This document shows positions 33,989-51,046 of a stretch of DNA of 64,000 nucleotides, in pieces. The translations under genes were made by a program, and so were the position numbers. This stretch comes from Escherichia phage vB_EcoM-P3322. The stretch is taken from sequence record PV191315.1; one strand, 5' to 3'. The notes under the pieces were generated by a model. It was not told the DNA's origin. It ran no database searches and saw nothing but the letters and a program-made list of their open reading frames with translations. The stretch's first letter is position 1; each line of letters starts with the position of its first letter.

Positions 33989-34184
33989 TTCTACCTCCTT
34001 CAATGCTTTGTGCCGTACCATCCCAAGCCATTAGAATGTTTTCCAATAGTTCACGAGGCTCTTTAAACCAAACTTCCATTTCATCAAGAATCTCGTCCGT
34101 GTCGTAAGTATAACCTGGAACACCAAGTTCACATTTCTTAAGATAGCTTTCTAACCAGCGGTGATAATTCTTAACCCCATTCAT
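33981..34184 (-). CDS. hypothetical protein
   Basis: Track ORF. Confidence 0.45.
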   Translation of the reverse strand: MNGVKNYHRWLESYLKKCELGVPGYTYDTDEILDEMEVWFKEPRELLENILMAWDGTAQSIEGGRNE

Positions 34185-34557
34185 ACTGTGCTACCTTTTC
34201 TTTTACCCAATCTACACGATCTTTATCATAATGTTGAGTGCCAAGGAAAAGACCATTGTGGAAACTTTCCTCACCGAAAGGATAAATTGGATCTAAACCA
34301 TCTTCTTCAAACAACATTTTTAATCTGTTTGATGTAGATTTCTTAGTTTCTGAATTGTAGTTTGTGGTTATAAGCCAATCTTCCAAACAACGACACAAGC
34401 CTTGACGAGAATCCCAAGGAAAAACACAATCTCCGACAGGAGCTTGTTCCGCCCATTTCAACCAACCTTTAAAAAAGTTATACAATATGTAGTCTTCAGT
34501 GTAATACATTAGCGCCTCCTTTACATATACAATAACACCCCGCAGAACGGGGTGCAA
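34171..34557 (-). CDS. paralog family A member (divergent)
   Basis: Shares W..W......GLC.C....PF.....(V/I).WVKE.(V/I) pattern with 5 other ORFs. Confidence 0.55.
   Translation of the reverse strand: MHPVLRGVIVYVKEALMYYTEDYILYNFFKGWLKWAEQAPVGDCVFPWDSRQGLCRCLEDWLITTNYNSETKKSTSNRLKMLFEEDGLDPIYPFGEESFHNGLFLGTQHYDKDRVDWVKEKVAQYEWG
34536..34554 (-). other. intergenic hairpin
   Basis: caccccg-cagaa-cggggtg. Confidence 0.35.
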
Positions 34558-34560
34558 CTA

Positions 34561-35172
34561 TTATTTAATCTGTTTAAAAATTTCGTTTGGAACGGTACCG
34601 TTTAAAATACCTTCTACGATCTCTTGTGCAGATGTGTAAGAGAGTCCAAAAGAAGCTACGCCTAAAATTGCCTCCTTCAAAGGATCTGGCAGGGGTTCAA
34701 AATTACCTGCAACAAAGCCACCTGCACAAGCAGCGCCTTCATCATCCCAGAAAACAACTGCTACATCGTTACCATGCGAAGTTGTGCGATGTGCAATAAC
34801 TTCAACTTCGGTGCCTTCTTTAGGAATAGAATAAGAACTGTCCCAAGAATATCTTTCCAAATCAGGAACAAAGATAACCTTTACACCTACTGGCGGCAGT
34901 TCACAACGATAATACCAAGAATTTTTTTCGTTCATTGTTTTATTTTCCTCCACGTCTTCAAAAGTAACGATCCAATCGTAGCCGTAAGAAAACGGATATT
35001 TTAGATCTAAAGAATAAGTTTGACCCAGATCGTCCTCAACAAGAACCATCCTATCAAAGTTTGCGATGTTAGGATTATGTTTAATGACAGGATATGTTTC
35101 CCCTACAGTAAATTGTCCCAAATGGTAAAGTTCATCTCTCCAAGTAATTTGGATATGAGTGCATTGAATCAT
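34561..35172 (-). CDS. hypothetical protein
   Basis: Track ORF, 203 aa. Confidence 0.6.
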   Translation of the reverse strand: MIQCTHIQITWRDELYHLGQFTVGETYPVIKHNPNIANFDRMVLVEDDLGQTYSLDLKYPFSYGYDWIVTFEDVEENKTMNEKNSWYYRCELPPVGVKVIFVPDLERYSWDSSYSIPKEGTEVEVIAHRTTSHGNDVAVVFWDDEGAACAGGFVAGNFEPLPDPLKEAILGVASFGLSYTSAQEIVEGILNGTVPNEIFKQIK

Positions 35173-35176
35173 AAAA

Positions 35177-35449
35177 TCACCCCCAAGAAATATTTATATA
35201 TCTTACAATGTTTGCACTGTCTAAAGCCATGTTTGCACCACACCCACGCTCGCGCCAGTAACTAACAATACCTTCACAGATACTCTCTTGTATCTTCTTA
35301 TCACTTGGCATTTCTAGTATAAGACTTGGGTTGTGGATGTTTATGTTATAATATCCTTCCTCTGCGGCTTGAGCTACCAATTTACTTACTTTTTCAAAGT
35401 ACGGGGAATTAGTGGCATCTGCCATTGTTTTTAAGGTTTGTCTATCCAT
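35177..35449 (-). CDS. hypothetical protein
   Basis: Track ORF. Confidence 0.55.
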   Translation of the reverse strand: MDRQTLKTMADATNSPYFEKVSKLVAQAAEEGYYNINIHNPSLILEMPSDKKIQESICEGIVSYWRERGCGANMALDSANIVRYINISWG

Positions 35450-35814
35450 TATTCTGCCTCATCATAGAAGAAATCCAACTCTTGTTCCAGTTGTTTAACT
35501 CGATCCTTAACCCACTGTACACGTTTTTCATTAAACATGCAACGTTTTTCCTTACACTCTTGCTCAAAAGATTTTGCTGTGTTAAATGGGAAAGTTGTAT
35601 CTAAGCCAGCGTTTTCAAAACTGGCTAATTGCATACCATAAACAGAATATGCTAAAGAATGCTCGGCCCGAAATTCATCACTTATATACATACGTAGACC
35701 TCGGCATAAGCCAACATCAGCGTAACCACTTTCTCTTGGAAAGAGCCGGAGGTGTTCTAACCAATTATTATAGAAATCTAAAAGAATCCTCTTACACTTC
35801 AAATCGATTGTCAT
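35449..35814 (-). CDS. paralog family A member
   Basis: ATG 35814 after GAAGGAG; LLDFYNNWLEH...GLCRGL...PFN...RVQWVKDRV. Confidence 0.6.
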   Translation of the reverse strand: MTIDLKCKRILLDFYNNWLEHLRLFPRESGYADVGLCRGLRMYISDEFRAEHSLAYSVYGMQLASFENAGLDTTFPFNTAKSFEQECKEKRCMFNEKRVQWVKDRVKQLEQELDFFYDEAE

Positions 35815-36214
35815 AAAAAGTTTCTCCTTCATCAAACAAGTTGGCAAGATTGTTCACGGCAATCTGGGTGGAAAGAAGACAACTGTTTGCAGACACATAA
35901 GCACGAGCTATTTTGTAAACATAGACTTTCGTATTACAATTATCTAGGATCGGAAGACTTTCGTCGATAGCATCTATAACACTAAACATCACATCTAAAA
36001 CTTTAATGGTGAGTGTTGTATTTGTATCTTCGTAACCTTTTTCAATCCGACCTGAATAGAAAGCATAGTCCTCAACAGTTCGTCGTTTAAACTGGCGCAT
36101 AAAATCGGAACCATCTGTAGCAGAATTGAACAAATTTTCAAAAAATACGTCCCATCCGGCAAAAAGGGCTGACAGCATGATTAAGTGATCTACAGATTCA
36201 TTTTCTTGTTTCAT
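35792..36214 (-). CDS. hypothetical protein
   Basis: RBS AGGAGAGG. Confidence 0.55.
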   Translation of the reverse strand: MKQENESVDHLIMLSALFAGWDVFFENLFNSATDGSDFMRQFKRRTVEDYAFYSGRIEKGYEDTNTTLTIKVLDVMFSVIDAIDESLPILDNCNTKVYVYKIARAYVSANSCLLSTQIAVNNLANLFDEGETFYDNRFEV

Positions 36215-36222
36215 ATCCTCTC

Positions 36223-36894
36223 CTATTTAATGTTCAGTCTGGCACACAAACGAGAAACAGTTTTAGCATCCCATTTACCACCACGTGCTGTTGCTATTTT
36301 CTTACTATTGAATTTTTCAGCAATAGTTTTGTAAGGGGTATTTAAATCTCTAAGGATCTCCAAGCGTTCACGGAATGTCTCTGCAAAAGCGTCTGCTTTA
36401 ACAGAATTGTATTCCATTTTTCCTTTTCTACGTGCAGCGGCAGTTTTAGGATTAGCACTGCCTAATAAAACACCTTTACTTTTTGCTACAGCAAGACCCT
36501 TTTTAATACGATCAGCAATACCTCTAACTTCTTGTTCAGCCAGAACAGACAGAAGCTGTATAACCATTTTATCTGCGTCTGGCATAATGGCTATCTTAAC
36601 ATCGATCATTTCTAGAAGAGTTGCTACGGAGGCGTTGTTACGACCCAAGCGGTCAACTTTAGCTACCAATAAAGTTGCTCCGGTAGCTTTACACATTTCA
36701 ACCGCTTTAACCAGTTCCTTACGTTGCTTCCAATCGCCCTTACCCGAATAGTATTCAGAAAATTGACCAATAACTTCCGCATCAGGCACAGAGTCTAAGA
36801 AGTAACGGATATCATTCTCTTGGCTCTCCATACCATATTGTGCCTCACCTTTTTTCTGTTTAGAAAGACGACTGTAAACAACAAACTTTTTCAT
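36223..36894 (-). CDS. serine recombinase (resolvase/invertase family)
   Basis: YSRLS (catalytic Ser region), VAKVDRLGRN, C-terminal HTH-like TARGGKW..TVSRL; ATG 36894 after AGGAGTGG. Confidence 0.75.
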   Translation of the reverse strand: MKKFVVYSRLSKQKKGEAQYGMESQENDIRYFLDSVPDAEVIGQFSEYYSGKGDWKQRKELVKAVEMCKATGATLLVAKVDRLGRNNASVATLLEMIDVKIAIMPDADKMVIQLLSVLAEQEVRGIADRIKKGLAVAKSKGVLLGSANPKTAAARRKGKMEYNSVKADAFAETFRERLEILRDLNTPYKTIAEKFNSKKIATARGGKWDAKTVSRLCARLNIK

Positions 36895-36914
36895 AACCAC
36901 TCCTAAACTATTGC

Positions 36915-36945
36915 TGTATTCTCACTTTACAAAACGAATAAACAC
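36915..36945 (-). promoter_or_regulatory. sigma70-like promoter for recombinase
   Basis: rc: TTGACA-17nt-TAAAGT. Confidence 0.45.
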
Positions 36946-36964
36946 TTGTCAAGGTATTTATTAT

Positions 36965-37177
36965 TTACAGCCATTCTACTCTTAAGCAGTATTCCTCGAC
37001 ATGTTGTTTACGCTTGTTTTTGTCTATGTAAGTGTATTCAACAAATGTCCCAAGATAGTCCTTGTCTACATTGTGTGGGCTATTGATTGGACATTTAGTA
37101 CGACAAACCCGTTGCCACTGACGAAGAATTACGGCTTTGTTTTTAGGATCAAAGGGATGAGGGTAATGTACCTTCAT
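36965..37177 (-). CDS. hypothetical protein
   Basis: RBS AGGAGG. Confidence 0.55.
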   Translation of the reverse strand: MKVHYPHPFDPKNKAVILRQWQRVCRTKCPINSPHNVDKDYLGTFVEYTYIDKNKRKQHVEEYCLRVEWL

Positions 37178-37501
37178 TCACGCCTCCTGTTTTAGTCGAA
37201 AAATATTTTGAATAACTAGAGATGTATAGTTATCACCTAGTCCCATAAGTTCTACTTCCAAGTTTCGAATATCCTCCACCGTAGGAGGATATGTTGGTAA
37301 AAATGCTTGAGCATTACCAGATCCAACTTCATTGCTGTAAGCAGTTGTAAAATTGTAAGATACAAAACATGAAACACCTTTTTGTCGGTACCCGATTAAT
37401 CGACGAATACACCAGATAAGAGCCAAACCTATGAGAACACCTCCTAAACCAGCTAACAAGAAGGATAAGTTCATAATAGCTTCGTTAACAACTGCTTCCA
37501 T
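37178..37501 (-). CDS. membrane protein
   Basis: RBS AAGGAG; TM segment LSFLLAGLGGVLIGLALIW. Confidence 0.6.
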   Translation of the reverse strand: MEAVVNEAIMNLSFLLAGLGGVLIGLALIWCIRRLIGYRQKGVSCFVSYNFTTAYSNEVGSGNAQAFLPTYPPTVEDIRNLEVELMGLGDNYTSLVIQNIFRLKQEA

Positions 37502-37511
37502 TCTTTTCTCC

Positions 37512-37811
37512 TTAGTTATGTAAACCCAAATGTGCTACAACTTCTCTACGATAAGACAACTGCATAGCGATTTTATAGCCAGGATGAAAACCATTTACAT
37601 CAATGTCATCAAACCAAATCTCAAACGAACCGTGCTTAAGAGTCATTAAGTTGATATACCATTCGATAATATAATGATCGTCAGCAATACCTTCGATGTA
37701 AAATTCTCGGCAACAGTGAGATAGGTCTTCACTCGTTTCACGTTTCCAGTCTTTGATAGCACCCTTCTCTTTGGCTTTATTCAGAATCTGGATCAGGTCT
37801 TCAACTTGCAT
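37512..37811 (-). CDS. hypothetical protein
   Basis: RBS AAGGAGAG. Confidence 0.6.
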   Translation of the reverse strand: MQVEDLIQILNKAKEKGAIKDWKRETSEDLSHCCREFYIEGIADDHYIIEWYINLMTLKHGSFEIWFDDIDVNGFHPGYKIAMQLSYRREVVAHLGLHN

Positions 37812-37864
37812 TTTCTCTCCTTTTGTGGTTAATCTTTATATTTTAAATATTGCACCGTTTTCTG

Positions 37865-38278
37865 TCAAATAGCCTCTTTCTCTAAAACAACTCTTTGGAT
37901 CACAACATCTTCAATGTTTGCCAAACAATGACCCAAAGTCAATCCCGCCTTGAAAGGTGCTTGTAGCTTGGATTCGGCTTCTACGCGAACAGAATGTTCC
38001 GCTCCGCACATGGTGTAATCTACACGGTAAACGTTTAAACCTAAGAACATAGATTCTTCTTCTTCACAACAAGGATTGAGTTCAGCCCAGTCCCAAGCAT
38101 CTCCTTCTAAAGCAAATGGAGTGTTGTAATTGAAGAAAGTGCAGCGCGGATATTCCCCGTTGAAAGAATCTTTCAGCAGAATATATTTCTTACCGTTTGC
38201 ATGGAAGAGTTCTCCTTTGATAACCTTACCTACAAGGATATCACTGTTAGTGGAACGGGTGCAAATAAACTTTTTCAT
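37865..38278 (-). CDS. hypothetical protein
   Basis: RBS AGAGGAG. Confidence 0.6.
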   Translation of the reverse strand: MKKFICTRSTNSDILVGKVIKGELFHANGKKYILLKDSFNGEYPRCTFFNYNTPFALEGDAWDWAELNPCCEEEESMFLGLNVYRVDYTMCGAEHSVRVEAESKLQAPFKAGLTLGHCLANIEDVVIQRVVLEKEAI

Positions 38279-38332
38279 GATTTTCTCCTCTTTGTTTCGA
38301 TGAGATGATTATGACAAAGACAGATCCTTCTG

Positions 38333-38659
38333 TCAACTATTTATTTCTTCTGCTACACGTTCTTTTACCCAGTTCACACGATCCACATTCAAATGACAAC
38401 GGCTTTTTTCCGCTTCTAAGGTGTACTTTCCAAAATTACTGTTGAAAGGCAACACCATAACCAAATCTTTGTGGTAGAACTGCTCATGCATTTCATCCAG
38501 TACGGGTTCGTATCGTTCGCTTTCACCCATATCGTAAAAATCATAGAGGTTCGAGCACAAACCTGTGCAACGGGTGAACGGTTCGCCTTCAGGAGCACCA
38601 GCTTCCAACCATGCCAAATACGTGCGGTAAAATGTTAATAGTTCTTCGCTCATTTCCAC
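38333..38659 (-). CDS. paralog family A member
   Basis: RBS GAAGGAG; FYRTYLAWLEAGAPEG...GLCSNL...PFN...HLNVDRVNWVKERV. Confidence 0.65.
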   Translation of the reverse strand: MEMSEELLTFYRTYLAWLEAGAPEGEPFTRCTGLCSNLYDFYDMGESERYEPVLDEMHEQFYHKDLVMVLPFNSNFGKYTLEAEKSRCHLNVDRVNWVKERVAEEINS

Positions 38660-38868
38660 TCTCCTTCATGATAGTAAACCTCAAAAGAATAGTAAGTGAA
38701 CATGCTCATTGTAACACCTGCCATTTCTGGATCAACGGAAGTGTTGTTATACATGTCAACTACTGCCTGACCCGCTGCTTTGGCATGTGCTGCCGAATCA
38801 CAAGCACAAACATCTTTCTCCCACGGAAACTTGCCATCATACTTAAGACGCACAATCCACATGATCAT
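38650..38868 (-). CDS. hypothetical protein
   Basis: Track ORF, translationally coupled. Confidence 0.5.
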   Translation of the reverse strand: MIMWIVRLKYDGKFPWEKDVCACDSAAHAKAAGQAVVDMYNNTSVDPEMAGVTMSMFTYYSFEVYYHEGEWK

Positions 38869-39092
38869 TCTTCCATCTCAAACCATTCAGGGAACACTTT
38901 GCGGAAGACCCGCGTGTTTTCTAAGAGAAATTCCAACTCTTTTTCCAAATCTGCGTTCCAACCGTTTATTTTAACACGGATTGCCAATGCACTTGCACGG
39001 CGACTCAATTCTTGACAGATTGGATCACGCAGAACTATTGAGTCATAAAACTGACAAACAGCCTCAAGTTCATACCAGTTATAATCCGACAT
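38865..39092 (-). CDS. hypothetical protein
   Basis: Track ORF, ATGA-type overlap. Confidence 0.5.
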   Translation of the reverse strand: MSDYNWYELEAVCQFYDSIVLRDPICQELSRRASALAIRVKINGWNADLEKELEFLLENTRVFRKVFPEWFEMEE

Positions 39093-39418
39093 TATTCATC
39101 CTCCTCTGCAATACGATCTCTTACCCAATTAATCCTGTCCACATTCAGGTGACATACCTCTGCATCTGATTCTAAGACATATGCATCGTAGTTCTCATTG
39201 AAGGGTAATTCTTGACTCAACCCTTTGTGGTAAAACTGTGCGTGCATTTCATCTGCCAAGGTTGTTATAAGGGGATTGTAGCCATCCGCGTGCACATAGT
39301 CGAATAAGTTGGCACACAAACCGCAATCCCGCCGAAAAGGTTTACCATCAGGAGCACCAACATCAATCCATGCTAGATAAATTTTATAAAACTCCATCAA
39401 CCTTGCGCTTGTTTTCAT
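39092..39418 (-). CDS. paralog family A member
   Basis: FYKIYLAWIDVGAPDG...GLCANL...PFN...HLNVDRINWVRDRI. Confidence 0.65.
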   Translation of the reverse strand: MKTSARLMEFYKIYLAWIDVGAPDGKPFRRDCGLCANLFDYVHADGYNPLITTLADEMHAQFYHKGLSQELPFNENYDAYVLESDAEVCHLNVDRINWVRDRIAEEDE

Positions 39419-39656
39419 TTAGCCACCTCGTTAGTTTTTCTTGCTCTTTGTTTGCGCGTTCTAAGCTTCTGAACTTTAAACAGAGGGAACGAGAATCCCT
39501 ACCCATGCACAAGCTTTCATCTAAGCTGTGCTCCCCAACCAACCAAAGAGAGTATGTTTGAACATCTAACCCATAGTTTCTGTCTTTCCATAATCTCACC
39601 CCAAGAACATCAAAAGGCGCTTCCGCGACTAAAGAAAGAAACCGATCTTTATTCAT
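39384..39656 (-). CDS. hypothetical protein
   Basis: RBS AAGGTGG. Confidence 0.45.
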   Translation of the reverse strand: MNKDRFLSLVAEAPFDVLGVRLWKDRNYGLDVQTYSLWLVGEHSLDESLCMGRDSRSLCLKFRSLERANKEQEKLTRWLNENKRKVDGVL

Positions 39657-39714
39657 ATTACACCACCTTGCTCACGTTGATAATGTACACCATACATAAA
39701 ATAAATGTCAAGGC

Positions 39715-39912
39715 TTATCGACACAGATGGTTGTAACGATCTGCTTTATCCTCTGCTTCAGCAAAGTCAGCAATCAAGGAAGTTTTGAGTTCTTCCAACT
39801 CTTTCACCCAAGAGTCGTAATCGTTCTGTGTTTCTCCAATAGTTTGGAGAAAACAATCGTCGTAGCCAATAGACATGGCTAACTCGATAATACGTTCCAG
39901 TTTTTCTTCCAT
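39715..39912 (-). CDS. hypothetical protein
   Basis: ATG 39912 after AAGGAGAG. Confidence 0.5.
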   Translation of the reverse strand: MEEKLERIIELAMSIGYDDCFLQTIGETQNDYDSWVKELEELKTSLIADFAEAEDKADRYNHLCR

Positions 39913-40274
39913 CACTTCTCTCCTTCTACACACTTCTGTTTAACATAGAAGTAAGCACCACGAGCAAGATACAAATCATGTTCAATATCGCTCACAGGAA
40001 AACCATCTGGATTTTTAAAGCCATCTTCTACAGCCAAAATGAGAGATCGTAAACTGATAGCTAACAACTCCATTTGATCTTGTAGTTTTCTATTTTCTGC
40101 GTAAAGGTTTTTGCATTTTTGTTCTGCATTTTTCCATTGTTCTAGTGCATGATCATAGCGGTGCATAAGAATAGCTTTTTCTTGTTCACGCTTAAAAGTT
40201 TCTTCACAAATGAAACCCGTGCCTAAACCAGTTTCTTCATCTTTAACAAATACTTCAACAAAATCTTTAGACAT
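39912..40274 (-). CDS. hypothetical protein (coiled-coil-like)
   Basis: ATG 40274 after AGGAGAT; track start 40394 overlaps next gene. Confidence 0.5.
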   Translation of the reverse strand: MSKDFVEVFVKDEETGLGTGFICEETFKREQEKAILMHRYDHALEQWKNAEQKCKNLYAENRKLQDQMELLAISLRSLILAVEDGFKNPDGFPVSDIEHDLYLARGAYFYVKQKCVEGEK

Positions 40275-40275
40275 A

Positions 40276-40539
40276 TTATCTCCTATTTGCTTTTGGATAC
40301 TCCCAACCCTCTGGGAGATCTTCTTTACACATCCACTCAAAAGGCCAGCGACAATAACTGTGCCACTTTCCATCGAGATACAAGCAATCTTCATCTACTG
40401 GTCCACAAGGGTTGATAACTACAACACACCCTTTCGCTCGCCAATATTGAACTATTTCAGGGTAAAAACAAGAAACGTCGGTCCACTCCCAAATACGCTC
40501 ATCATTCAAACGGTATGCTGCTGGCAATGTTTCTTCCAT
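40276..40539 (-). CDS. hypothetical Cys/Trp-rich protein
   Basis: RBS AGAGG. Confidence 0.5.
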   Translation of the reverse strand: MEETLPAAYRLNDERIWEWTDVSCFYPEIVQYWRAKGCVVVINPCGPVDEDCLYLDGKWHSYCRWPFEWMCKEDLPEGWEYPKANRR

Positions 40540-40543
40540 ATTA

Positions 40544-40990
40544 TTAAACCTCTGTCAAAGAGAAACGCCAATCCTTACTACTACCTACACCAAGGAAGAT
40601 ATAGTTTCCGGTACTAACGGAATATCTCCAAGCGGGAATCCAATCAGGAATCTCTGGCTTATGGCTGTAGCCATAACGCTCGCCACTCGAATCTGTTGCA
40701 ATATAATTAACAAATTCAGGAACCTCTAAAGTTTCACCTTGATACTCTACACGCTTGAAGCCATCTTCCACTTCTTTCTCACCTTCTACCAGACAAGCAA
40801 GAAGTTTGATGTGAGGGCAAGTGAAATCTTGTCCTGGATAACGTGAACGGATATCGGTTAACAATGCGATCACAGCATCCGATAACTCTTTATAATCCTC
40901 ATATCTTACAAATGTGCCTTCTGTCGGATCATCAGGACACAAACGCCAAGCATCGTTGCAGTTTACAGCATAATGTCGCACTTTAGTCAT
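40544..40990 (-). CDS. hypothetical protein
   Basis: RBS AGGGGG. Confidence 0.6.
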   Translation of the reverse strand: MTKVRHYAVNCNDAWRLCPDDPTEGTFVRYEDYKELSDAVIALLTDIRSRYPGQDFTCPHIKLLACLVEGEKEVEDGFKRVEYQGETLEVPEFVNYIATDSSGERYGYSHKPEIPDWIPAWRYSVSTGNYIFLGVGSSKDWRFSLTEV

Positions 40991-41000
40991 AAATACCCCC

Positions 41001-41399
41001 TTATCGTTGCGTACAATCAGCTTCTAGAGTAAGAACATTCGTTATTGTTTTATCATTTTTTAGAAATGCAAACCAAGCTAAAGTGTCTCGATACTCTGTG
41101 CGCATCATCACAACTTCAGTAGTGCCAATAAACTGTTGTGAACCATACATAGCACTACCATCTTTACTTTTTTCTCCTGTGTATTGCAGAATGCCACTCA
41201 TCAAAGCACCACCTGAATTTTTAAGGATAAAGGAGTTATCTTTATTAATGACAACAGAAGCCATTTTCTTAGGACCAGAAATCACTTCACCTTTCAGATT
41301 TTTAACAACCACATCTGACACACACTCATAAACTTGAGACGCATTTGCTGTTCCGAGTGATGCAATGAGTAACAATAAACCTACGATGATCTTTTTCAT
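41001..41399 (-). CDS. secreted/lipoprotein-like protein (signal peptide)
   Basis: RBS AGAGGAGAG; MKKIIVGLLLLIASLGTANA. Confidence 0.6.
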   Translation of the reverse strand: MKKIIVGLLLLIASLGTANASQVYECVSDVVVKNLKGEVISGPKKMASVVINKDNSFILKNSGGALMSGILQYTGEKSKDGSAMYGSQQFIGTTEVVMMRTEYRDTLAWFAFLKNDKTITNVLTLEADCTQR

Positions 41400-41494
41400 A
41401 TAAACTCTCCTCTTTATTTACCCGACGCGCCCCTGTTGGGCGGAAAGGGTTGTACGCAAAATTTTTAGCTCCAATCGTCGGGTGTCCCGACTCC

Positions 41495-41701
41495 TTACGC
41501 TTTTAATGTTTTAACAGAATGACAAGCTTTGCAAACCATAACCGGAACAAGTTCGTCTCCACTGTCCGCATAAATCACTGTTTTCTTCATTCTGCTACCA
41601 CATGAACAATACTCTGTATGATCCGCTGGAATATTAAATATTCCGTAATCACTTTCATACTGTTTCTTACATATGGACACTGCTTTTGTAAAACGAGACA
41701 T
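41495..41701 (-). CDS. small zinc-ribbon protein
   Basis: RBS GGAGTAGG; CSCGS...CKACHS. Confidence 0.5.
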   Translation of the reverse strand: MSRFTKAVSICKKQYESDYGIFNIPADHTEYCSCGSRMKKTVIYADSGDELVPVMVCKACHSVKTLKA

Positions 41702-41703
41702 AC

Positions 41704-41925
41704 CTACTCCGCAAGAACATTCACTTCGTCAGAGAAAAATACGTAATCACAACCTTCCCAAACATCTTCTTCAAACCACTCCCATCCCTCAACTTTGGAC
41801 ATTTCTTCTATCGTAACAAAGAATGTTGTCATATCATCGCTAACAAGATGCGCTTCAACAACAAAAGGAATCTGAACATTCTCAAAACCAACATAACCCA
41901 ATACATCACAAACTCTAATTTTCAT
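41704..41925 (-). CDS. paralog family B member
   Basis: RBS AAAGGAG; shares W.W...........DYVFF motif with 45957..46187. Confidence 0.55.
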   Translation of the reverse strand: MKIRVCDVLGYVGFENVQIPFVVEAHLVSDDMTTFFVTIEEMSKVEGWEWFEEDVWEGCDYVFFSDEVNVLAE

Positions 41926-41926
41926 A

Positions 41927-42115
41927 TTATGCTCCTTTGTAGATTATGTTGGTGCGTTCACACTCTGCCACCAGCAAGCGATTAGCAATGTTGTCCATAG
42001 GAACATCAATCTCTACGCTCCAGGCATTGATATACACTTCTTCAATCTTTGCTCCAAGCATTTGTGCGATCAGAGCAACAGCCCCAGCATATTCAAGTTT
42101 AATCTCAATTACCAT
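41927..42115 (-). CDS. hypothetical protein
   Basis: ATG 42115 after GAGGTG. Confidence 0.5.
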   Translation of the reverse strand: MVIEIKLEYAGAVALIAQMLGAKIEEVYINAWSVEIDVPMDNIANRLLVAECERTNIIYKGA

Positions 42116-42129
42116 TTTGCACCTCAAGG

Positions 42130-42330
42130 TTATTTATCTTGCTTGTATCTTACAAGGCGATCACACTCCAGGTCAAGAAATTTCTCCGCATTTCGTTCGT
42201 GTTTGAGCACAATACATTGTTCTTTCCAGTCTGTAGCTCTTTGCTGCGCTGCTCCTGGGTCAAAATCCCAAAGCCATGCCGCGAAAAGAACAACCATAAC
42301 AATTACTAAGAAACTAAACACTATTGGCAT
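42130..42330 (-). CDS. small membrane protein
   Basis: ATG 42330 after AGGAGGA; TM segment IVFSFLVIVMVVLFAAWLW. Confidence 0.5.
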   Translation of the reverse strand: MPIVFSFLVIVMVVLFAAWLWDFDPGAAQQRATDWKEQCIVLKHERNAEKFLDLECDRLVRYKQDK

Positions 42331-42635
42331 TGCACATCCTCCTGTGTAGCATGGTCTTTTACCCATTTTATACGGGCAGCATTCAAATGCAATAGCCCGT
42401 TTCTTTGTGCAAAATCATATTTAAACCAGTCTCCGTCATCAAACGGGTATTCTTCAGACAATCCTGCCTCACGGAATTGCATTTGCATTTCATAATTTAG
42501 ATCATCATAACCTCCAGTCCAAAGGTAGAGGCAACTACATAATCCTTTATCATGCCAGAAAGGATTATTATCTGGAGCACCAGCTAATAGCCAATTATGA
42601 TATGCCTGATAAAATTCTTTAAGTTCCTCTGACAT
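42321..42635 (-). CDS. paralog family A member
   Basis: RBS AGGAGG; FYQAYHNWLLAGAPDN...GLCSCL...PF...HLNAARIKWVKDH. Confidence 0.65.
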   Translation of the reverse strand: MSEELKEFYQAYHNWLLAGAPDNNPFWHDKGLCSCLYLWTGGYDDLNYEMQMQFREAGLSEEYPFDDGDWFKYDFAQRNGLLHLNAARIKWVKDHATQEDVQCQ

Positions 42636-42812
42636 TTAACCTCCTGTATATAGTGTTGAAAGATACACAGCAAAAGCATTCTCGGCTGTTTTCACCTCCT
42701 CTTCAAGATCTTCACGCTCTGCTGGCGTTAATGCATTCCGCACAGCAGCGTCTGCTTCTCGGATTTTTCTTACTAAACGTGAAACATCTTTCAGTTGTTG
42801 AAAAGTAGCCAT
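42636..42812 (-). CDS. small hypothetical protein (58 aa)
   Basis: Below track threshold; RBS AACAGGAGAAAG. Confidence 0.4.
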   Translation of the reverse strand: MATFQQLKDVSRLVRKIREADAAVRNALTPAEREDLEEEVKTAENAFAVYLSTLYTGG

Positions 42813-42827
42813 AGTCTTTCTCCTGTT

Positions 42828-43187
42828 TTAGTGAGTGTCGCGCCATTCGGCAATCTCTTCGGCTAAACGATCACAAGAATCGAAAGCCACTTTACCTTCG
42901 CCAGGGTAGTTCCAGAAGACACCCCGTGAATCTGTAATGTTTATATGATACTTGTCCCACATCTCTTTTGCAAGTGGTCGATCAACATATCCTTCAAAAT
43001 ATACTTCAGTTTCTGCTGAATATGGAGTGTAATCGCTGGCAGCAAAAGCGTTCTGGAAGATCACCATCACATTACGTGTTGTGCTTGGATGCATCAATTG
43101 GTGAAATTTTAACAATCTTCCGTTGATCCTAACAACATCTCCTTCAAACAAGGAGATATCTTTTACTTTACGAAATTCTCCGCTCAT
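42828..43187 (-). CDS. hypothetical protein
   Basis: RBS AAGGGGG. Confidence 0.6.
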   Translation of the reverse strand: MSGEFRKVKDISLFEGDVVRINGRLLKFHQLMHPSTTRNVMVIFQNAFAASDYTPYSAETEVYFEGYVDRPLAKEMWDKYHINITDSRGVFWNYPGEGKVAFDSCDRLAEEIAEWRDTH

Positions 43188-43196
43188 TTTACCCCC

Positions 43197-43388
43197 TTAA
43201 TACACATCTCCTACAAACCAGATTTCTGGATCGCCATACTGATCCTTCTCGTAAGATTTATAGACACTACAGCAATATTTCAAAACACCATCGACAAGGA
43301 TTGTTGATCTTTCTTCTGGAATCTCTGTGATTTCACCTTTGCGGGTTTCGAAGATGGTATCACCCTTTTCAATCAGTCTGATTTTCAT
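43197..43388 (-). CDS. hypothetical protein
   Basis: Track ORF. Confidence 0.5.
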   Translation of the reverse strand: MKIRLIEKGDTIFETRKGEITEIPEERSTILVDGVLKYCCSVYKSYEKDQYGDPEIWFVGDVY

Positions 43389-43587
43389 ATCGTACTTCCT
43401 TCAATGCGAGTAATGCATTTACCAGATTATCAACACCTTGATCATCCAGTGCGATAACATCGAAGTTAAACCCTGTGTCAGTTGGGACTTTACGTTTTAT
43501 GGTGTAATAGTCCCCTTCATGACGTTCAACATACACGTATGGGTAACTGCTGTTCGGATCATGTTTCACGCGAATAGATGTTTTCAT
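43369..43587 (-). CDS. hypothetical protein
   Basis: RBS AAGAGGAG. Confidence 0.55.
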   Translation of the reverse strand: MKTSIRVKHDPNSSYPYVYVERHEGDYYTIKRKVPTDTGFNFDVIALDDQGVDNLVNALLALKEVRYENQTD

Positions 43588-43602
43588 GTTTTGTTCTCCT
43601 CT

Positions 43603-43839
43603 TTAGTCAAACCAGTTGTATTCAGAAGGGTAACGAGCGTAGTTTGGCTTATACCCCAGCCTTTTCATCTTGACAGACATACGAGTGAAGCCAAAAGTTG
43701 TTTTGCCCTTAGACATAAACTTCTTCCCACTCTTCATTGGCTTCTTAGGGTCTTTGATCGTCTGGTGTAACGCTCGCGCAAGCCACAAAGTGTATGCGCT
43801 CGGCACTTGATTAACTTTCATCTTGTTACCTTTCATCAT
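43603..43839 (-). CDS. small basic protein
   Basis: ATG 43839 after GAGGT; Lys/Arg-rich. Confidence 0.5.
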   Translation of the reverse strand: MMKGNKMKVNQVPSAYTLWLARALHQTIKDPKKPMKSGKKFMSKGKTTFGFTRMSVKMKRLGYKPNYARYPSEYNWFD

Positions 43840-44135
43840 TTTACCTCGGACCAATCAATAGTGATCCACTCGTATGCCCCGTTCAGATCCATTTCTTTAT
43901 AAACAATAAGCCCACGCTCACGAAGAATTGCTACTGCTTCATCCATCCACTTCACCTGATTGTAGATCTGCTCTGGGTGGGTGGGAGAATTATTCAGACC
44001 AAAATCGGATGGCGTGAAATTTCTTGAAGAGTTTCCCGCTCGGGCTTCAGCAAAACATGTCTCGATCACTTCTTCAACAGGGAAATTGAAGGAAGCTTCT
44101 TTTGCAATACGGCGTAACTGTTCGGTCAGATTCAT
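43836..44135 (-). CDS. hypothetical protein
   Basis: RBS AAAGGAG. Confidence 0.6.
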   Translation of the reverse strand: MNLTEQLRRIAKEASFNFPVEEVIETCFAEARAGNSSRNFTPSDFGLNNSPTHPEQIYNQVKWMDEAVAILRERGLIVYKEMDLNGAYEWITIDWSEVK

Positions 44136-44162
44136 CTTATTCTCCTTTCGTTGTGCGAAACA

Positions 44163-44600
44163 TTATAACAGATCTAATGCTTTCAACTCTTCTTTCAATG
44201 ATTCAGGCAGGTCACATTCAATGTCAATCAGAGATAACAAGTGACCAACAATGCCTTCCAGATGTTGATACTCACTATAACTTATAAATTCAGAATTGTA
44301 AACAGAAACATCCTTAGTTTCTTTCACAACTTCCCCCGCAGACACGCACATAAAAAAGTTACGCTCTCCGCGAGCTAACAATATCTCCCAACTCCTGAAC
44401 GGATACTGTCCAGCTTCAATAATATCTCCACTGTCCAGTAAAGTCAATGAGCAAACAGACCCTGATTCACTAACATCTTCGACGCGGAAACAAGACCCTT
44501 CAATCAAAGCTGCCATTTTGAAATTTTCATCAGAGATCATAGAGAAAGCTTCACATGCAGCTTTACTTTTGAAACAATAAACAGCATTAACTTTAAACAT
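44163..44600 (-). CDS. hypothetical protein
   Basis: RBS AAAGGGGAA. Confidence 0.6.
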   Translation of the reverse strand: MFKVNAVYCFKSKAACEAFSMISDENFKMAALIEGSCFRVEDVSESGSVCSLTLLDSGDIIEAGQYPFRSWEILLARGERNFFMCVSAGEVVKETKDVSVYNSEFISYSEYQHLEGIVGHLLSLIDIECDLPESLKEELKALDLL

Positions 44601-44612
44601 AACATTCCCCTT

Positions 44613-45068
44613 TTAAACAAAAGATACGCCGATGGTAGCAACAACCAAACGTTTATAAACTTCAACCTCTTCTGTAGGATTAGCCATTTTATGCTCTGCT
44701 GCTTCTTTCAAAGCTTCTTCATAACTTTCAAATCCAGAAATACAGGTGTCATCAGTCATTACAACATACCACTCTTCTTTTGTTGTATCAACAGGTTCTT
44801 CTTGGGGTTTTCCACGACCACCGCGAATACCACCGTCAACAAAATAATCTATATGAGCAGAATTGATTATGTAACGATCCCCATCACTAGCAGTGATAAT
44901 ACCGTCTCTCCCTATCACAACAATTGACAAGATATTACCATTTGCATCAGTGCTCAACACCTCGAAAAAATTCTCTCCAATGATAGCAGCAATACTGTTA
45001 TCAAAGGTAGAATATAGTCGCATATAATCCTCATCCTGGAAACGGTAGACATGACCTTCTTTAAACAT
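44613..45068 (-). CDS. hypothetical protein
   Basis: ATG 45068 after GAAGGAG. Confidence 0.55.
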   Translation of the reverse strand: MFKEGHVYRFQDEDYMRLYSTFDNSIAAIIGENFFEVLSTDANGNILSIVVIGRDGIITASDGDRYIINSAHIDYFVDGGIRGGRGKPQEEPVDTTKEEWYVVMTDDTCISGFESYEEALKEAAEHKMANPTEEVEVYKRLVVATIGVSFV

Positions 45069-45161
45069 TGTATGCTCCTTCTTGTTCAAGAGTAAAAGGA
45101 ATGATCTCACCATAGCTGTATTGCATGGCATCCACTTCTGCTTCTGCACGTTGTGCTAGTT

Positions 45162-45254
45162 CTAATGTTGCACAGATCTTGTAAGGGACAGTGCTGCATT
45201 GGCTCCAGCCTGGGTATTCTTTGTTACTAAATATACAGTAGTTCCTTTATTCAT
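45162..45254 (-). CDS. small hypothetical peptide (30 aa)
   Basis: Strong RBS AGAGGAGAAAG; below track threshold. Confidence 0.25.
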   Translation of the reverse strand: MNKGTTVYLVTKNTQAGANAALSLTRSVQH

Positions 45255-45708
45255 AACTTTCTCCTCTTAGTTCATCATACCATTTCAAAGCGTCTTTTGG
45301 AAGCATACCAAAATCTTCTTTTAGTTCTTTTTCAATCTCTTCTTGCATTTCCATCAGCGTTTTCAGTTGACGGACTTTTTTGTGCATAGCCACATTCCTT
45401 TCATTAAGGTTTGTCACTACATTATTTGCACGACTTGGTGGAAATGACAAAGGTTTCACGGGAAGATAATCTTCGATATTATCTAGTGCGTTACGAAAAT
45501 TATGATCCAAGAAACGTACATCTACACGATTGTAATCGGCAGCTACAACAGTGAACACTTTAAACGGCACATTGGATAAAGTATGTTGCACATAGACAGT
45601 ACCCATATTGCCTTCAATTTTACTATTAACTTCCAGCAAACCTGTATGAGCACTAACATAATCGTGAACACATTGCACATAAGCTGCCAGTATAGTGAAT
45701 TGTCTCAT
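45247..45708 (-). CDS. hypothetical protein
   Basis: RBS GGGGAGG. Confidence 0.6.
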   Translation of the reverse strand: MRQFTILAAYVQCVHDYVSAHTGLLEVNSKIEGNMGTVYVQHTLSNVPFKVFTVVAADYNRVDVRFLDHNFRNALDNIEDYLPVKPLSFPPSRANNVVTNLNERNVAMHKKVRQLKTLMEMQEEIEKELKEDFGMLPKDALKWYDELRGESYE

Positions 45709-45953
45709 TTTCTACCTCCCCATAATGCTAACATTTTATTGAAAATGGAAACGCGTCGTGCGCGAGATGCCATATCATAATTCATTCTTTCCGTCTCTGC
45801 AAGAAATTGATCTACTGTAATCAACGCTTTTGTCTTCTCTTTCAGAGTTTGCATATTCATCCATTCACATTCAGAATACCAATTATCGAAATACAAACTA
45901 TCAAGAAGATCCATTGCTGCTTCGTTCTGCTGTGGTGTGATCATTGCACACAA
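45705..45953 (-). CDS. hypothetical protein
   Basis: Track ORF; start likely internal ATG. Confidence 0.5.
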   Translation of the reverse strand: MCAMITPQQNEAAMDLLDSLYFDNWYSECEWMNMQTLKEKTKALITVDQFLAETERMNYDMASRARRVSIFNKMLALWGGRK

Positions 45954-45956
45954 CCT

Positions 45957-46187
45957 TTAATAGACAATTTCATATTCGTGAGGAAAGAAAACATAATCTT
46001 CCCCTTCTCGTGCATCTATCTCGTCCCAAAACCATTCCTGCACTTCCATCATCTTCGAGAATCGCACATGAGCAAGCCCACTGTATTCCACCGTAGCTTC
46101 CAGCACAAGTGGAAATTTTGCATGTGCCAATCCTTTATAACCACCATCATTCTCAATACGAATTTTCATGCGTTTCATATTATGCAT
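45957..46187 (-). CDS. paralog family B member
   Basis: Shares W.W........DYVFF motif with 41704..41925. Confidence 0.55.
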   Translation of the reverse strand: MHNMKRMKIRIENDGGYKGLAHAKFPLVLEATVEYSGLAHVRFSKMMEVQEWFWDEIDAREGEDYVFFPHEYEIVY

Positions 46188-46389
46188 CCTTCAGACCCTT
46201 AATGAAATAACGACCAACCGGATTCCCTCGGAAGTATTCGTTAATGAAATCGATAACACACGTTTCACTACCTGTCACAACGGACGGTGCGAAGTTTCGG
46301 AACTGCACGAGTACACGACTTGCGTTAGCAAGGGTGTGCACACGATCAGTGTTAGCTAAATACAAGGATACAGTTTTCAAATTCTTCAT
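46180..46389 (-). CDS. hypothetical protein
   Basis: RBS GAGGAG. Confidence 0.55.
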   Translation of the reverse strand: MKNLKTVSLYLANTDRVHTLANASRVLVQFRNFAPSVVTGSETCVIDFINEYFRGNPVGRYFIKGLKDA

Positions 46390-46438
46390 TTCATCTCCTC
46401 ATTGGCTATCTGTTATGTCATCCATTATACAAACATCT

Positions 46439-46813
46439 TTATTCAAAGCAAACATTATTTGCATCTTCAATTCTGTCTTTCACCCATTGAAGACGTAACG
46501 TGTTGGTATGACACGCCAAGTTTATACACTCTGAAAGGTAATCCATGCAATCTGCATTGAACGGAAGATTGTAGTCCAGCCCTGCACATGTAAACTGTTT
46601 CCTCATTTCGTATTTCAAACTATCCAACAAACGATCACGCCATCTTTTATCTTCTTCTCTGGTTGTCTCACCAACAAAATCATCTACATAATCTACCAGA
46701 CAACCACATAAGCCACTCGTTGTGCGATTCATTGCAGGATAGTTGGCAATCCATGCTTTATAGAAGCGAAGCAATGTTGCACTACTCAACGGAATATTTT
46801 TACTCTCTTGCAT
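46439..46813 (-). CDS. paralog family A member (N-terminally extended)
   Basis: RBS GAGAGGAG; FYKAWIANYPA...GLCGCL...PFN...RLQWVKDRI. Confidence 0.6.
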   Translation of the reverse strand: MQESKNIPLSSATLLRFYKAWIANYPAMNRTTSGLCGCLVDYVDDFVGETTREEDKRWRDRLLDSLKYEMRKQFTCAGLDYNLPFNADCMDYLSECINLACHTNTLRLQWVKDRIEDANNVCFE

Positions 46814-48434
46814 GACAATCTCCTCTCATCGTTAGCCATCTTTCATGGCAATCATCAATCACCAACATCATACGATCAATCTCAGGGAATTACAATCGAA
46901 TTATCATAGGGGATTCCTATCAATTATCCCATATATACCGATTATTTTTGACACCCCACTCTTGTATAAAAAGTAACCCAAAATATCTACGGGGAGAGAT
47001 TATTTCGGGACACCCTGTTTCATGGCAATCATGGCAAGAATATCTAATAGAATCAATATCATATGGCAAAAATCATGACGCATACGTAAGAAGTGCTTAA
47101 CGCGAATTTTCGGGCCGTCAGGTCCACGCAGCGACAATTCCCAAATATCATGAGAATGAGAATAATTATCATTCGTATTCAATGACTTATGCAAGGCTCA
47201 TGCCAACATAGCGACAAGGTGGGCCACTTGATTATAAATCACACAAACACTTATTTATCAATAGGTTGGCAACTTCATCATATGACGGAACATTGTCAAC
47301 TGATCCCGCTCATGACAAGCAGACTATTATTTATATGAGAATGATTATTATTTAAACGTTTATTAACATAAAAATTAAAATAAATCAAGAATTTTCTGAT
47401 TTTATTTACGTTTAAGAGAAGATGCTCAACATCCTACCGGATCGCCGTTGGCAATCCTCGGATATTTACGCCCCCATGATTAAGGTTTATCTCTTTTCTT
47501 AGTGCTCAACATTCCCGCCCGTGGCGGTAACATTTCGCCCCCAAAATTATTGCTTTTTATTCTATTATGTGCATAGTGTGCAATGTATCGGAATGATGAT
47601 AATCATCCTCCCATTGCCCCCATAATTATTGCCATGCTAATGATTTCATCTTGTAATTACCACAATGATTATTGTTATTGCGCTAATGTTATGATCTTGG
47701 TAATTACATATAATGCTAATAATAAGCCAGCGCAATAAGTGTAAGCGTCATTACGCTTGCAATTATTGCAAGCTACGCAGTAACAAGAAATAACCATCAC
47801 CGATGGTTATGATTGTTGGGGTGTAGTTGGCTTATTATTAGCTCGCTATGTGTCCGGCATAGCGTGCTAATGATGATCCTGGGAATGATTCGTTTTGTAA
47901 TGATTTCATTCAGTCACTATTATGGCAATAGTTATTATTTTAATGGTTTCGTTTGTTATTGTTCGTTAGTTGGTTGTTTTGTCGTGTTATCGTTATCTTG
48001 CTTAGTATTCATCATGGTTTGATTGTTTGTCGTTATCAATCATCTTGCTATTATTCCTTTGATTATGATTAGTTTGCTTATTGTTTTAGGTTGTTGGTTA
48101 GTTAGTTGTTGCGAACTATTATCAACATTATAGTTATGCACTTATATTGCATAGATAAACATGGATAGATGATAATGGTTATCATTGAACTAGAAAAGAG
48201 GTAAAAGGGTGTTTTTGATGGTTTGTTGTTGGTTGTTGATCGATTTTAACCGCTATAAATGGCTCTCTAACAGCCTGTTACCCTGGGAGGTATGGTTATT
48301 CGTTTAATGGTTGATTAGCTCGATACCGCGATTTATTCAATTTTGTTCTGTGTCGGTTTTTCATAGGCGAAAGCTATCAACATTGTTCGGGCAAAAAGAA
48401 AGGGCGCTTGGTGCGCCCCTTGTTTTGTTGTCGC
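46814..48434. other. 1.6-kb ORF-poor region with iterons, palindromes and a GT-skewed tract; candidate origin/packaging/regulatory region
   Basis: No convincing ORF; direct repeats gctaatg..atcttg.taattac; perfect palindrome gcttgcaattattgcaagc; GT-rich low-complexity 47930-48130. Confidence 0.5.
48398..48429 (-). terminator. bidirectional hairpin terminator (copy 1 of AAGGGCGC-N5-GCGCCCTT)
   Basis: aaagggcgc-ttggt-gcgcccctt flanked by T/A runs. Confidence 0.6.
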
Positions 48435-49685: not shown

Positions 49686-49748
49686 CAGGCGGGAAACATT
49701 CCCGCCCTACGTGATAAATGATAATGTAAGCGTGATCCGGTGTCAATA
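49686..49748 (-). promoter_or_regulatory. PeSL-like unit
   Basis: hairpin ggcgggaaacattcccgcc; rc TTGACA-17-TATCAT. Confidence 0.65.
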
Positions 49749-49887
49749 GGTAGGATTGTAAAGATTTGATAGTTTATCTCTTTGATGTTTTGTTGTTTGA
49801 TAGATGTTAGCTATCAATATATAGCGGGGTCGTCCGGTGATTATCTTCCCCTGCTCCCAGGTGCCGCCCGTTCAATAAGTATAACAA

Positions 49888-49913
49888 AAAACAGGACAAA
49901 AACAAGCCCTGTT
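49888..49913 (-). terminator. hairpin terminator (minus strand)
   Basis: aaacagg-acaaaaacaagc-cctgttt with T-run on minus. Confidence 0.45.
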
Positions 49914-49921
49914 TATTTATC

Positions 49922-50056
49922 TTAAAACCAGTTGCCAACCGTTTCCAATAGGTCACTGACTACCAGGACAACATTAATCAGCACATATTCAACCAGGAAG
50001 GGAATAAGCGCCAGCGTTGCTACTACGATCCCCATTGTGATGATTACCTTTCTCAT
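49922..50056 (-). CDS. small membrane peptide (44 aa)
   Basis: Below track threshold; ATG 2 nt after upstream stop; hydrophobic. Confidence 0.35.
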   Translation of the reverse strand: MRKVIITMGIVVATLALIPFLVEYVLINVVLVVSDLLETVGNWF

Positions 50057-50058
50057 GG

Positions 50059-50343
50059 TTAGCGGCTTACGTAAGCTTTACCGTTTACGGTCATCGGTAT
50101 GGCCTCAAGGTCTGGATCTTCCTTAAGGTCGCGTGCAAGCTCACCGCAGCGGATACCCTCGAATCCGTGGTATTCTGTCGCGCCGTCCTGGAAAGTTTTA
50201 GCGGCAAGGCATAGGCGATAATTAACACCGATCCGGTTTACCGCGTTGATATCGGTTAACGTGATGGATTCAGGCAAATCATTAGCCATTACAGGCGCGT
50301 TAATACCAACAACCAGGGCAACTACTGCGATCATCTTTTTCAT
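50059..50343 (-). CDS. small secreted protein (signal peptide)
   Basis: MKKMIAVVALVVGINAPVMA; PeSL-like hairpin upstream. Confidence 0.6.
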   Translation of the reverse strand: MKKMIAVVALVVGINAPVMANDLPESITLTDINAVNRIGVNYRLCLAAKTFQDGATEYHGFEGIRCGELARDLKEDPDLEAIPMTVNGKAYVSR

Positions 50344-50369
50344 GTGTCTATCCTCTTCCTATTGCGTTT

Positions 50370-50392
50370 AATGGGGGCGTTACCGCCCTGCT
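50370..50392 (-). promoter_or_regulatory. PeSL-like hairpin
   Basis: gggggcg-ttac-cgccc. Confidence 0.5.
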
Positions 50393-50398
50393 TATGGT

Positions 50399-50635
50399 TT
50401 ATTGATTGATGTTATAATGAAAATTATTTTCTTCAATAGCTTTTAAAATAAAAGCCGTGATCGCTTTCGTGTCTACTTGTTCGAACGTATCAGAATAGCA
50501 CCAATAATAATCATCCCCTACTTTCGGCGGGTAAACCTGGACAAGGAGATCGCCACCTGGTTGATCTATAAGCTCAACATGCAAGCCGGATGATTCAGCG
50601 GTTTTAACGGCGGTTAATACTGTTGCAATACTCAT
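50399..50635 (-). CDS. hypothetical protein
   Basis: Track ORF; hairpin upstream. Confidence 0.6.
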   Translation of the reverse strand: MSIATVLTAVKTAESSGLHVELIDQPGGDLLVQVYPPKVGDDYYWCYSDTFEQVDTKAITAFILKAIEENNFHYNINQ

Positions 50636-50652
50636 AATCTTTTCCTTTCTGA

Positions 50653-50672
50653 TGTGGGGCGTTGCCGCCCCT
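50653..50672 (-). promoter_or_regulatory. PeSL-like hairpin
   Basis: ggggcg-ttgc-cgcccc. Confidence 0.5.
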
Positions 50673-50679
50673 TTGTTGA

Positions 50680-50979: not shown

Positions 50980-50985
50980 TTTACT

Positions 50986-51046
50986 TTCCTCATTATCGGC
51001 GGCACCATTGCCGCCCTACGTGGTAAATATTAGCACACTGGCGATC
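50986..51046 (-). promoter_or_regulatory. PeSL-like unit
   Basis: hairpin ggcggcaccattgccgcc; rc TTGACA at 51039-51044. Confidence 0.65.

Follow-up and report, generated by a model that had tools for sequence, protein, structure and literature searches.

What are six related small genes doing within 13 kb of a single phage genome, and did they arise in a recent burst of diversification or do they have an older history? The question is posed by a 64,000-nucleotide stretch of Escherichia phage vB_EcoM-P3322 (sequence record PV191315.1; hereafter the window), where six short open reading frames (ORFs) on the minus strand, between positions 34,171 and 46,813, share a recurring pattern of residues. 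An earlier note on this DNA proposed that they form a paralogous family generated by repeated duplication and diversifying selection, as in host-interaction or counter-defence families, and could assign no known domain to it. The best explanation of our results is that the six are maintained separately, without redundancy, as members of a large family of phage domains (phrog_2510), to which gp3 of coliphage N4 also belongs. The genes lie in a minus-strand block (window 30-48 kb) where about 60 short genes are closely packed and GC skew is negative. The 13-kb stretch that holds them is 97-99% identical to genomes of the genus Phapecoctavirus (Mt1B1_P17, TSP7_1, phAPEC8, ESCO5/13 and others), which are 150-kb myophages, and judged by sequence the phage is a Phapecoctavirus-like E. 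coli myophage. Everything under this match is annotated in the relatives as 'hypothetical protein', with the exception of one serine recombinase.

Six diverged copies of one domain

The six ORFs, here called copies A to F (Table 1), align colinearly, and the G-L-C, P-F and R..W-V columns are invariant among them. Their common origin by duplication, as proposed in the earlier note, is borne out by three lines of evidence. Pairwise BLASTP matches range from 23% identity (E 6e-04, A/F) to 50% (E 2e-42, C/D), C and D being the closest paralogues at about 50-54% identity. Hidden Markov models (HMMs) built from any five copies recover the sixth at E 1e-14 to 4e-34, with the next of 667 six-frame window ORFs at E>=0.05. 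Finally, phrog_2510, an independent library model, matches each of the six along its entire length (E 3e-25 to 6e-32). The shared motif had been drawn somewhat too literally: 'GAP' and 'HLN' occur as such in C, D and E only (A has QAP and HYD, B LFP and MFN, F NYP and HTN), and 'PFN' is PFG in A and PFD in E. The positions first given hold for B, D, E and F, but two starts have to be moved. Copy A probably begins at the ATG at 34509 and not at the TTG at 34557, because a terminator-like hairpin, which would fall inside the TTG-extended reading, fills the intervening 34535-34555, and because the gene is annotated with 339 nt in SF1-1, Mt1B1_P17 and ESCO13; the corresponding sequence cluster, P0006, is of 112 amino acids, and Schickermooser has an annotated terminator at the site equivalent to the hairpin. 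For copy C, the most likely start is the ATG at 38653, as in its orthologues.

Table 1. The six family members of the window and two associated features (E-values for the library model and for the model built from the other five copies; dN/dS pooled over orthologues)
Feature	Position	Strand	Length (aa)	pI	phrog_2510 E	Leave-one-out HMM E	dN/dS	Remarks
Copy A	34171..34509	-	112	4.7	8e-27	1e-14	0.06	
Copy B	35449..35814	-	121	5.3	2e-26	1e-16	0.04	
Copy C	38333..38653	-	106	4.6	2e-31	5e-31	0.17	length from ATG
Copy D	39092..39418	-	108	4.7	6e-32		0.18	sequence modelled
Copy E	42321..42635	-	104	4.5	8e-29	2e-22	0.01	
Copy F	46439..46813	-	124	5.0	3e-25	2e-19	0.25	
Terminator-like hairpin	34535..34555	-						immediately upstream of copy A; GCACCCCGTTCTGCGGGGTGT, then a T-rich tail
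Unequal-crossover junction	46781..46796	-						in copy F; BLASTN against Mt1B1_P17 and three-way DNA alignment

A six-frame HMM scan of the window finds exactly six members. One weak, recurring match, to the antisense ORF 1116-1370, was rejected as a seventh, as it carries neither the PF nor the R..WV motif and lies inside a 241-aa ORF on the plus strand. Like most of the block, all six proteins are acidic, with a pI of 4.5-5.3 and a net charge of -4 to -11, and no signal peptide or transmembrane segment is evident in their sequences.

All-against-all BLASTP of 95 minus-strand ORFs identifies the family as by far the largest paralogous set of the block. The only other detectable paralogues are the minus-strand genes 41704-41925 and 45957-46187 (37% identity, E 3e-11), which end in ..DYVFF.. 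and one of which is labelled 'protein ea8.5' in Shigella phage SF1-1. The same comparison, which found no partner gene common to the flanks of the six copies, bears on the possibility that the copies are immunity or antitoxin-like partners of toxic phage proteins, laid out as two-gene modules repeated along the block. Arrays of diverged small helical immunity genes do occur in polymorphic-toxin loci, and our copies are likewise scattered among many small genes of unknown function, but no partner family accompanies them (the single pair above being unrelated), and N4-like and T7-like phages have just one such gene. We consider an immunity role barely credible.

Selection, age and copy-number change

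Divergence among the copies had been taken as a sign of diversifying selection. Pooled, gene-wide dN/dS (Nei-Gojobori), computed with the relatives SF1-1, phiWec190, Mt1B1_P17, UP17, Schickermooser and ESCO13, does not support this: the values (0.01-0.25; Table 1) lie in the range of 34 neighbouring genes (0.04-0.36) or, for copy E, below it. Purifying selection of ordinary to strong degree thus acts on every copy, and positive selection across the gene as a whole is rejected for all six. Copy E is the most constrained, with one nonsynonymous against 38 synonymous differences across four relatives, and copy F has the highest ratio. Orthologues of copy B at >=95% identity are present in 64 phage records, and those of copy D range from 60 to 99% identity across 65 records.

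If the copies are not diverging rapidly, how old are they? Outside C/D, identity between paralogues is low (21-40%; 23-41% for most pairs by BLASTP), and database sequences fall into a separate subfamily for each copy. Homologues in unrelated phages share 40-42% identity with copy D, as compared with 37-41% for E and F and 28-29% for A and B. Since D is as close to homologues from unrelated phages as it is to E and F, the divergence of the paralogues must be old, with no recent burst. The low dN/dS of each copy, despite low identity between paralogues, supports the view that distinct functions have been kept.

Content nevertheless varies between close relatives. Six copies are present in the window, in SF1-1 and in Schickermooser, seven in Mt1B1_P17 and in ESCO13, and eight in phiWec190. 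The six of Schickermooser are a different set, without C and with the extra tandem copy that Mt1B1_P17 has; C is also absent from ESCO13, and phiWec190 has no orthologues of A, B, E or F. Neither window 1-34 kb nor the first 100 kb of the Mt1B1_P17 record, where the genes for replication, nucleotide metabolism and structural proteins lie, contains a family copy; together the two represent the rest of the genome. The early block also contains, at 36223-36894 (minus strand), a serine recombinase/DNA invertase gene, with PF00239 matched in the locus of Citrobacter phage Tr1; in Mt1B1_P17 and TSP7_1 its counterpart is labelled 'methionine ABC transporter ATP-binding protein', apparently in error. 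In ESCO13, the genes between the serine recombinase and copy C are replaced, and a different family member sits there.

A trace of how copy number changes is preserved in copy F. By BLASTN, Mt1B1_P17 14000-14685 corresponds to window 46121-46796 and Mt1B1_P17 14998-15643 to window 46781-47426, the 312 bp between them being missing. The upstream region and first ~11 codons of copy F match the extra tandem copy of Mt1B1_P17, the remainder matches the F orthologue, and a three-way DNA alignment places the switch within the shared ATTCCGTTGAG(T/C)AGT. This is where an unequal crossover joined two tandem paralogues. Variation is greatest in the F-type subfamily, which has many variants at 45-93% identity that share an N-terminal PLSS..L..FYKAW and a C-terminal RIEDANNxC(I/F)E and vary in the middle. 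Adjacent pairs of family genes occur in phiWec190 (2848-3312/3284-3676), Tr1 (698-1060/1048-1392) and Mt1B1_P17 (14331-14726/14689-15042), and Tr1 also has a fused two-domain family gene (6001-6696). These pairs, together with the fused gene, suggest repeated tandem duplication followed by fusion. Varying copy number, missing orthologues and the crossover junction all support an accessory nature for the family.

A phage domain family and its conserved residues

A profile of 35 members, searched against 1.84 billion representatives of clusters at 50% identity, retrieves 1590 representatives at E<=1e-3 and 642 at E<=1e-10, and repeat homologue searches added almost no further members. With copy D as query, tblastn reports 638 places in 260 phage records. 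In these searches the family is almost exclusively found in phages; the few bacterial contigs with members are possibly prophages, and a scan of bacterial genomes with patterns derived from the window gave a single contig of 717 bp. Among the members are the N4 gp3 orthologue (HMM E 1e-18), whose gene is flanked by gp2 and the genes for RNAPII, and, in the T7-like Ralstonia phage RSB1, ORF5 (E 3e-16), located upstream of a gp0.7-like kinase. Others are gp006 and gp010 of phi92, and proteins of rV5-like Av-05, of 47-kb siphophages and of the jumbo phages BcepSaruman and BcepSauron.

In most records of N4-like and other short-tailed phages among the matches listed, the gene lies no more than about 7 kb from a genome end. 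The left end of N4 is injected first and early promoters are confined to it, early products including gp1, gp2, gp15 and gp16 (PMC4496689). In the block of the window, a scan for consensus-grade sigma-70-like promoters on the gene strand found 77, against 55.7 +/- 7.4 expected. Because of this genome-end or early-region position and the sigma-70-like promoter motifs, early expression is a reasonable inference.

Is the domain related to anything characterised? The earlier note could assign none, and our searches agree. Pfam and NCBIfam scans of the six copies gave nothing near any cut-off, and PADLOC, a library of defence and not of anti-defence systems, gave no match. When 123 diverse members were run singly against Pfam, 41 families appeared, each for one member only at E>=0.014, and none recurred. 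Sequence profile searches of the Protein Data Bank (PDB) with 6 and with 123 sequences matched no chain. Solved anti-defence proteins would fall within these PDB sequence searches and the fold searches described below, which gave nothing, and no HMM match to a housekeeping domain was found. In PHROG, phrog_2510 has the category 'unknown function' (weaker matches are phrog_6418, phrog_27059 and phrog_2176), and its profile of 219 positions corresponds to the tandem two-domain form of relatives. This PHROG entry groups sequences without attaching a function, a structure or a name to them, and it does not cover the presence of several copies per genome, the selection acting on them or the invariant Cys and Arg.

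AlphaFold2 predicts copy D, the one copy modelled, as an all-alpha domain of five helices (pLDDT 94.3, pTM 0.86). Fold searches of the PDB gave no significant match to any solved protein. In BFVD, matches with TM 0.7-0.87 (17 at E<=1e-3) are to phage 'uncharacterized proteins' only, from phages of Rhizobium, Burkholderia, Achromobacter, Delftia, Pectobacterium, Klebsiella, Erwinia, Shigella and Pseudomonas.

Conservation is concentrated in a small number of positions (copy D numbering). C35, P72, F73 and R95 are invariant in the 123 diverse single-domain members. Across 238 domains, L7, F10, Y11, W17, G33, L34, F62, P72, Y80, E83, W98 and V99 are conserved, and retention of the remaining positions of interest is 93% for C35, 83% for E57, 85% for Q61, 100% for F73, 72% for H90, 91% for N92 and 99% for R95. 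The six copies conform to the conserved core of the family (F10, Y11, W17, G33-L34-C35, F62, P72-F73, R95 and W98-V99). Insertions and deletions cluster in the helix 2-3 loop. Tandem fusions of two or three domains account for ~20 of the 150 best representatives (~13%), and in one lineage (P0152/P0190, phage Av-05, E. coli contigs) the domain is fused to DUF551 (PF04448). PF04448 is found in the fused relative P0152 and has no match in the six window copies. All fusion partners (DUF551 and further PHROGs) are of unknown function. A model of the two-domain relative P0046 of Citrobacter phage Tr1 (pTM 0.61) has a second domain with no alignment depth and pLDDT ~50-60, and was uninformative on the packing of the two domains.

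The cysteine deserves particular attention, since it raises the possibility that the proteins are small cysteine-dependent enzymes whose paralogues modify different host macromolecules early in infection, as do Alt, ModA and ModB of phage T4, three paralogous ADP-ribosyltransferases with different host targets. Cys35 stands at the start of predicted helix 2. Its sole replacement is Lys, in the DUF551-fused lineage, where all other conserved residues are kept; replacement by Lys, and never by Ala, Ser or Val, makes the position probably solvent-accessible and argues that Cys35 is accessible and functional. Retention of the other conserved residues in that lineage suggests that they do more than support the Cys. 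The invariance of Cys35 and Arg95 and the conservation of Gln61, Asn92 and His90 fit an enzyme, as does purifying selection on every copy. Papain-like and other Cys-His hydrolases were rejected as relatives, the model being all-alpha with no match to a peptidase fold and His90 being kept in 72% only; invariance of the Cys may be compatible with catalysis on some other fold. The resemblance to Alt, ModA and ModB, and to other multi-copy early accessory families of large phages, is an analogy of logic: several diverged but conserved paralogues, early and presumably with different targets. Our family has no ADP-ribosyltransferase motif or fold and is instead a 100-aa all-helical domain. We regard an enzymatic role as unlikely, if worth taking seriously.

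The same polar residues could form a pocket, in which case the proteins would be sponges for small immune-signalling molecules or other nucleotides. Tad1/Tad2 and Acb2 sequester small immune-signalling molecules in this manner, and small size, early position and the conserved polar residues would all suit such a role, as would the tandem fusions, which suggest oligomers. Yet no sequence or fold similarity to any solved PDB protein was detected, six diverged paralogues under separate purifying selection would require six ligands, acidic proteins are unfavourable for anionic nucleotides, and only a single basic residue is invariant. This makes sequestration decidedly improbable.

Two further candidate relationships were examined and set aside. 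Membership of the winged helix-turn-helix (HTH) proteins (MarR-like) was rejected, judged by the combination of a tri-helical HTH with a beta-wing, a significant fold match and a basic DNA-binding surface. That the copies are phage regulators with a degenerate winged-helix-like core, binding DNA or RNA polymerase to time phage genes, seems to us most unlikely. The second is Atd1, a MazG-like anti-TIR pyrophosphatase reported in Phapecoctavirus and Justusliebigvirus (PMC11724313; bioRxiv 10.1101/2022.06.09.495361), which like the window copies is small, all-helical and from the same phage group, and which has an anti-defence role. It was rejected as a family member because no Pfam match, MazG included, recurs in the family and no MazG structure is among the fold matches listed; the yardstick was a MazG profile match together with the four-helix MazG fold and twin EXXE/EXXD catalytic motifs.

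Candidate roles of the six copies

Taken together, how might these observations be accommodated? The reading that we tentatively prefer, while allowing that it could quite well be wrong, is that the proteins act early, in the cytoplasm, as effectors that share a conserved scaffold and bind different host or defence proteins through surfaces that vary. The leftward early/accessory block would probably be transcribed from host-type promoters soon after infection. The rigid scaffold would bear the invariant Cys35/Arg95 site, together with Gln61, Asn92 and usually His90. The variable surfaces would be formed by the loop between helices 2 and 3, the region of helix 4 and the tails, and through them each paralogue would bind a different host or anti-phage defence protein that is thereby neutralised or redirected. 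Tandem duplication, unequal crossing-over and cassette replacement expand and contract the repertoire, tandem copies at times fusing into two- and three-domain proteins; these fusions hint that the working unit may be a dimer. The acidic character of the proteins, the lack of an evident transmembrane segment or signal peptide and the clustering of indels in the helix 2-3 loop support a binder of this kind. The host-interaction or counter-defence role suggested in the earlier note is plausible from the early, accessory position of the genes.

Several points weigh against early effectors with diverse targets. Homology provides no link between the family and any target, defence system or activity, and no member was matched in PADLOC, Pfam or the PDB. 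The invariant Cys and Arg, with Gln and His, could just as well belong to a catalytic site or to a pocket that binds a ligand. Strong purifying selection, and the occurrence of the family in phages of many Proteobacteria, would be expected of a conserved target more than of one engaged in an arms race. The early timing is deduced from position and promoter-like motifs, and dimerisation is suggested by the fusions, to which the P0046 model adds no resolved packing. A bolder variant, about which we are doubtful, is that the N4 gp3/phrog_2510 domain represents, at the level of fold, a new class of early effector centred on an invariant Cys-Arg site that is reactive. It would be either a new kind of enzyme that modifies the host by means of the cysteine or a trap, covalent or ligand-binding, with repertoires of six to eight specialised paralogues in large myophages, possibly homo- or heterodimers, each disarming a different defence or takeover target.

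N4 gp3 and its orthologues in N4-like Schitoviridae have the same domain in a single small early-region gene; unlike the window, there is one copy per genome and not six, and identity to copy D is ~31%. DUF551 proteins of rV5-like phages and E. coli contigs share the domain through the fused lineage, with Lys in place of the Cys, whereas the window copies have no DUF551, which is itself uncharacterised. Within the papers that could be searched, literature queries about N4 gp3, phrog_2510, phi92 gp006, paralogues in phAPEC8 and anti-defence in Phapecoctavirus yielded no functional study of the family and no paper on the paralogy described here.

Some features of the surroundings may be recorded here. 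In the minus-strand block at window 49690-59138, a conserved intergenic cassette is present in at least 10 copies, each ahead of an individual small gene, and consists, in gene-strand order, of a TTGACA-type promoter-like element, a GC-rich hairpin (GCGGCAATGGTGCCGC) and a purine-rich ribosome-binding site (AGAGAGAAA..ATG). The family-bearing part at 34-47 kb has no cassette of this type, and its genes are overlapping and operon-like. Upstream of copy F, window 46814-48400 is an ORF-poor stretch of ~1.6 kb whose far boundary is a strong bidirectional terminator-like hairpin (48399-48421). GenBank records of the relatives start and finish within its equivalent, the ends of Mt1B1_P17 overlapping by 334 bp (window 47099-47432), and the stretch is possibly a genome terminus or regulatory region. 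An Rfam search of the window matched no RNA family. At 41001-41399 (minus strand), a 132-aa protein with a signal-peptide-like N-terminus (MKKIIVGLLLLIASLGTANA) occurs amid otherwise cytoplasmic-looking early genes; its counterpart is called 'RNA ligase' in SF1-1, a label that seems doubtful. Finally, the Campylobacter phage records B15, A145 and A150 and that of Acinetobacter phage vB_AbaM_ABPW7 are ~97% identical to E. coli Phapecoctavirus in this region, so these host labels may be wrong or reflect contamination.

What has been established is a well-defined, uncharacterised gene family, with the homology of its copies, their predicted fold and distribution, the selection acting on them, their changes in number and the crossover junction, and no new mechanism is demonstrated. 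The family comprises at least 1590 clusters at 50% identity and, going by gene position, appears to be among the first genes expressed in many unrelated phages of Proteobacteria (N4-like, T7-like, rV5/phi92/phAPEC8-like and jumbo Burkholderia phages), yet it has no Pfam entry or solved structure. The window is a compact natural experiment, in that six diverged copies are individually conserved while close relatives vary in content, and its set of six is a good entry point for assigning function to N4 gp3-type proteins. If the copies do prove to be counter-defence or takeover factors, this would annotate thousands of 'hypothetical' early genes and would help to explain differences in host range among therapeutic Phapecoctavirus phages.

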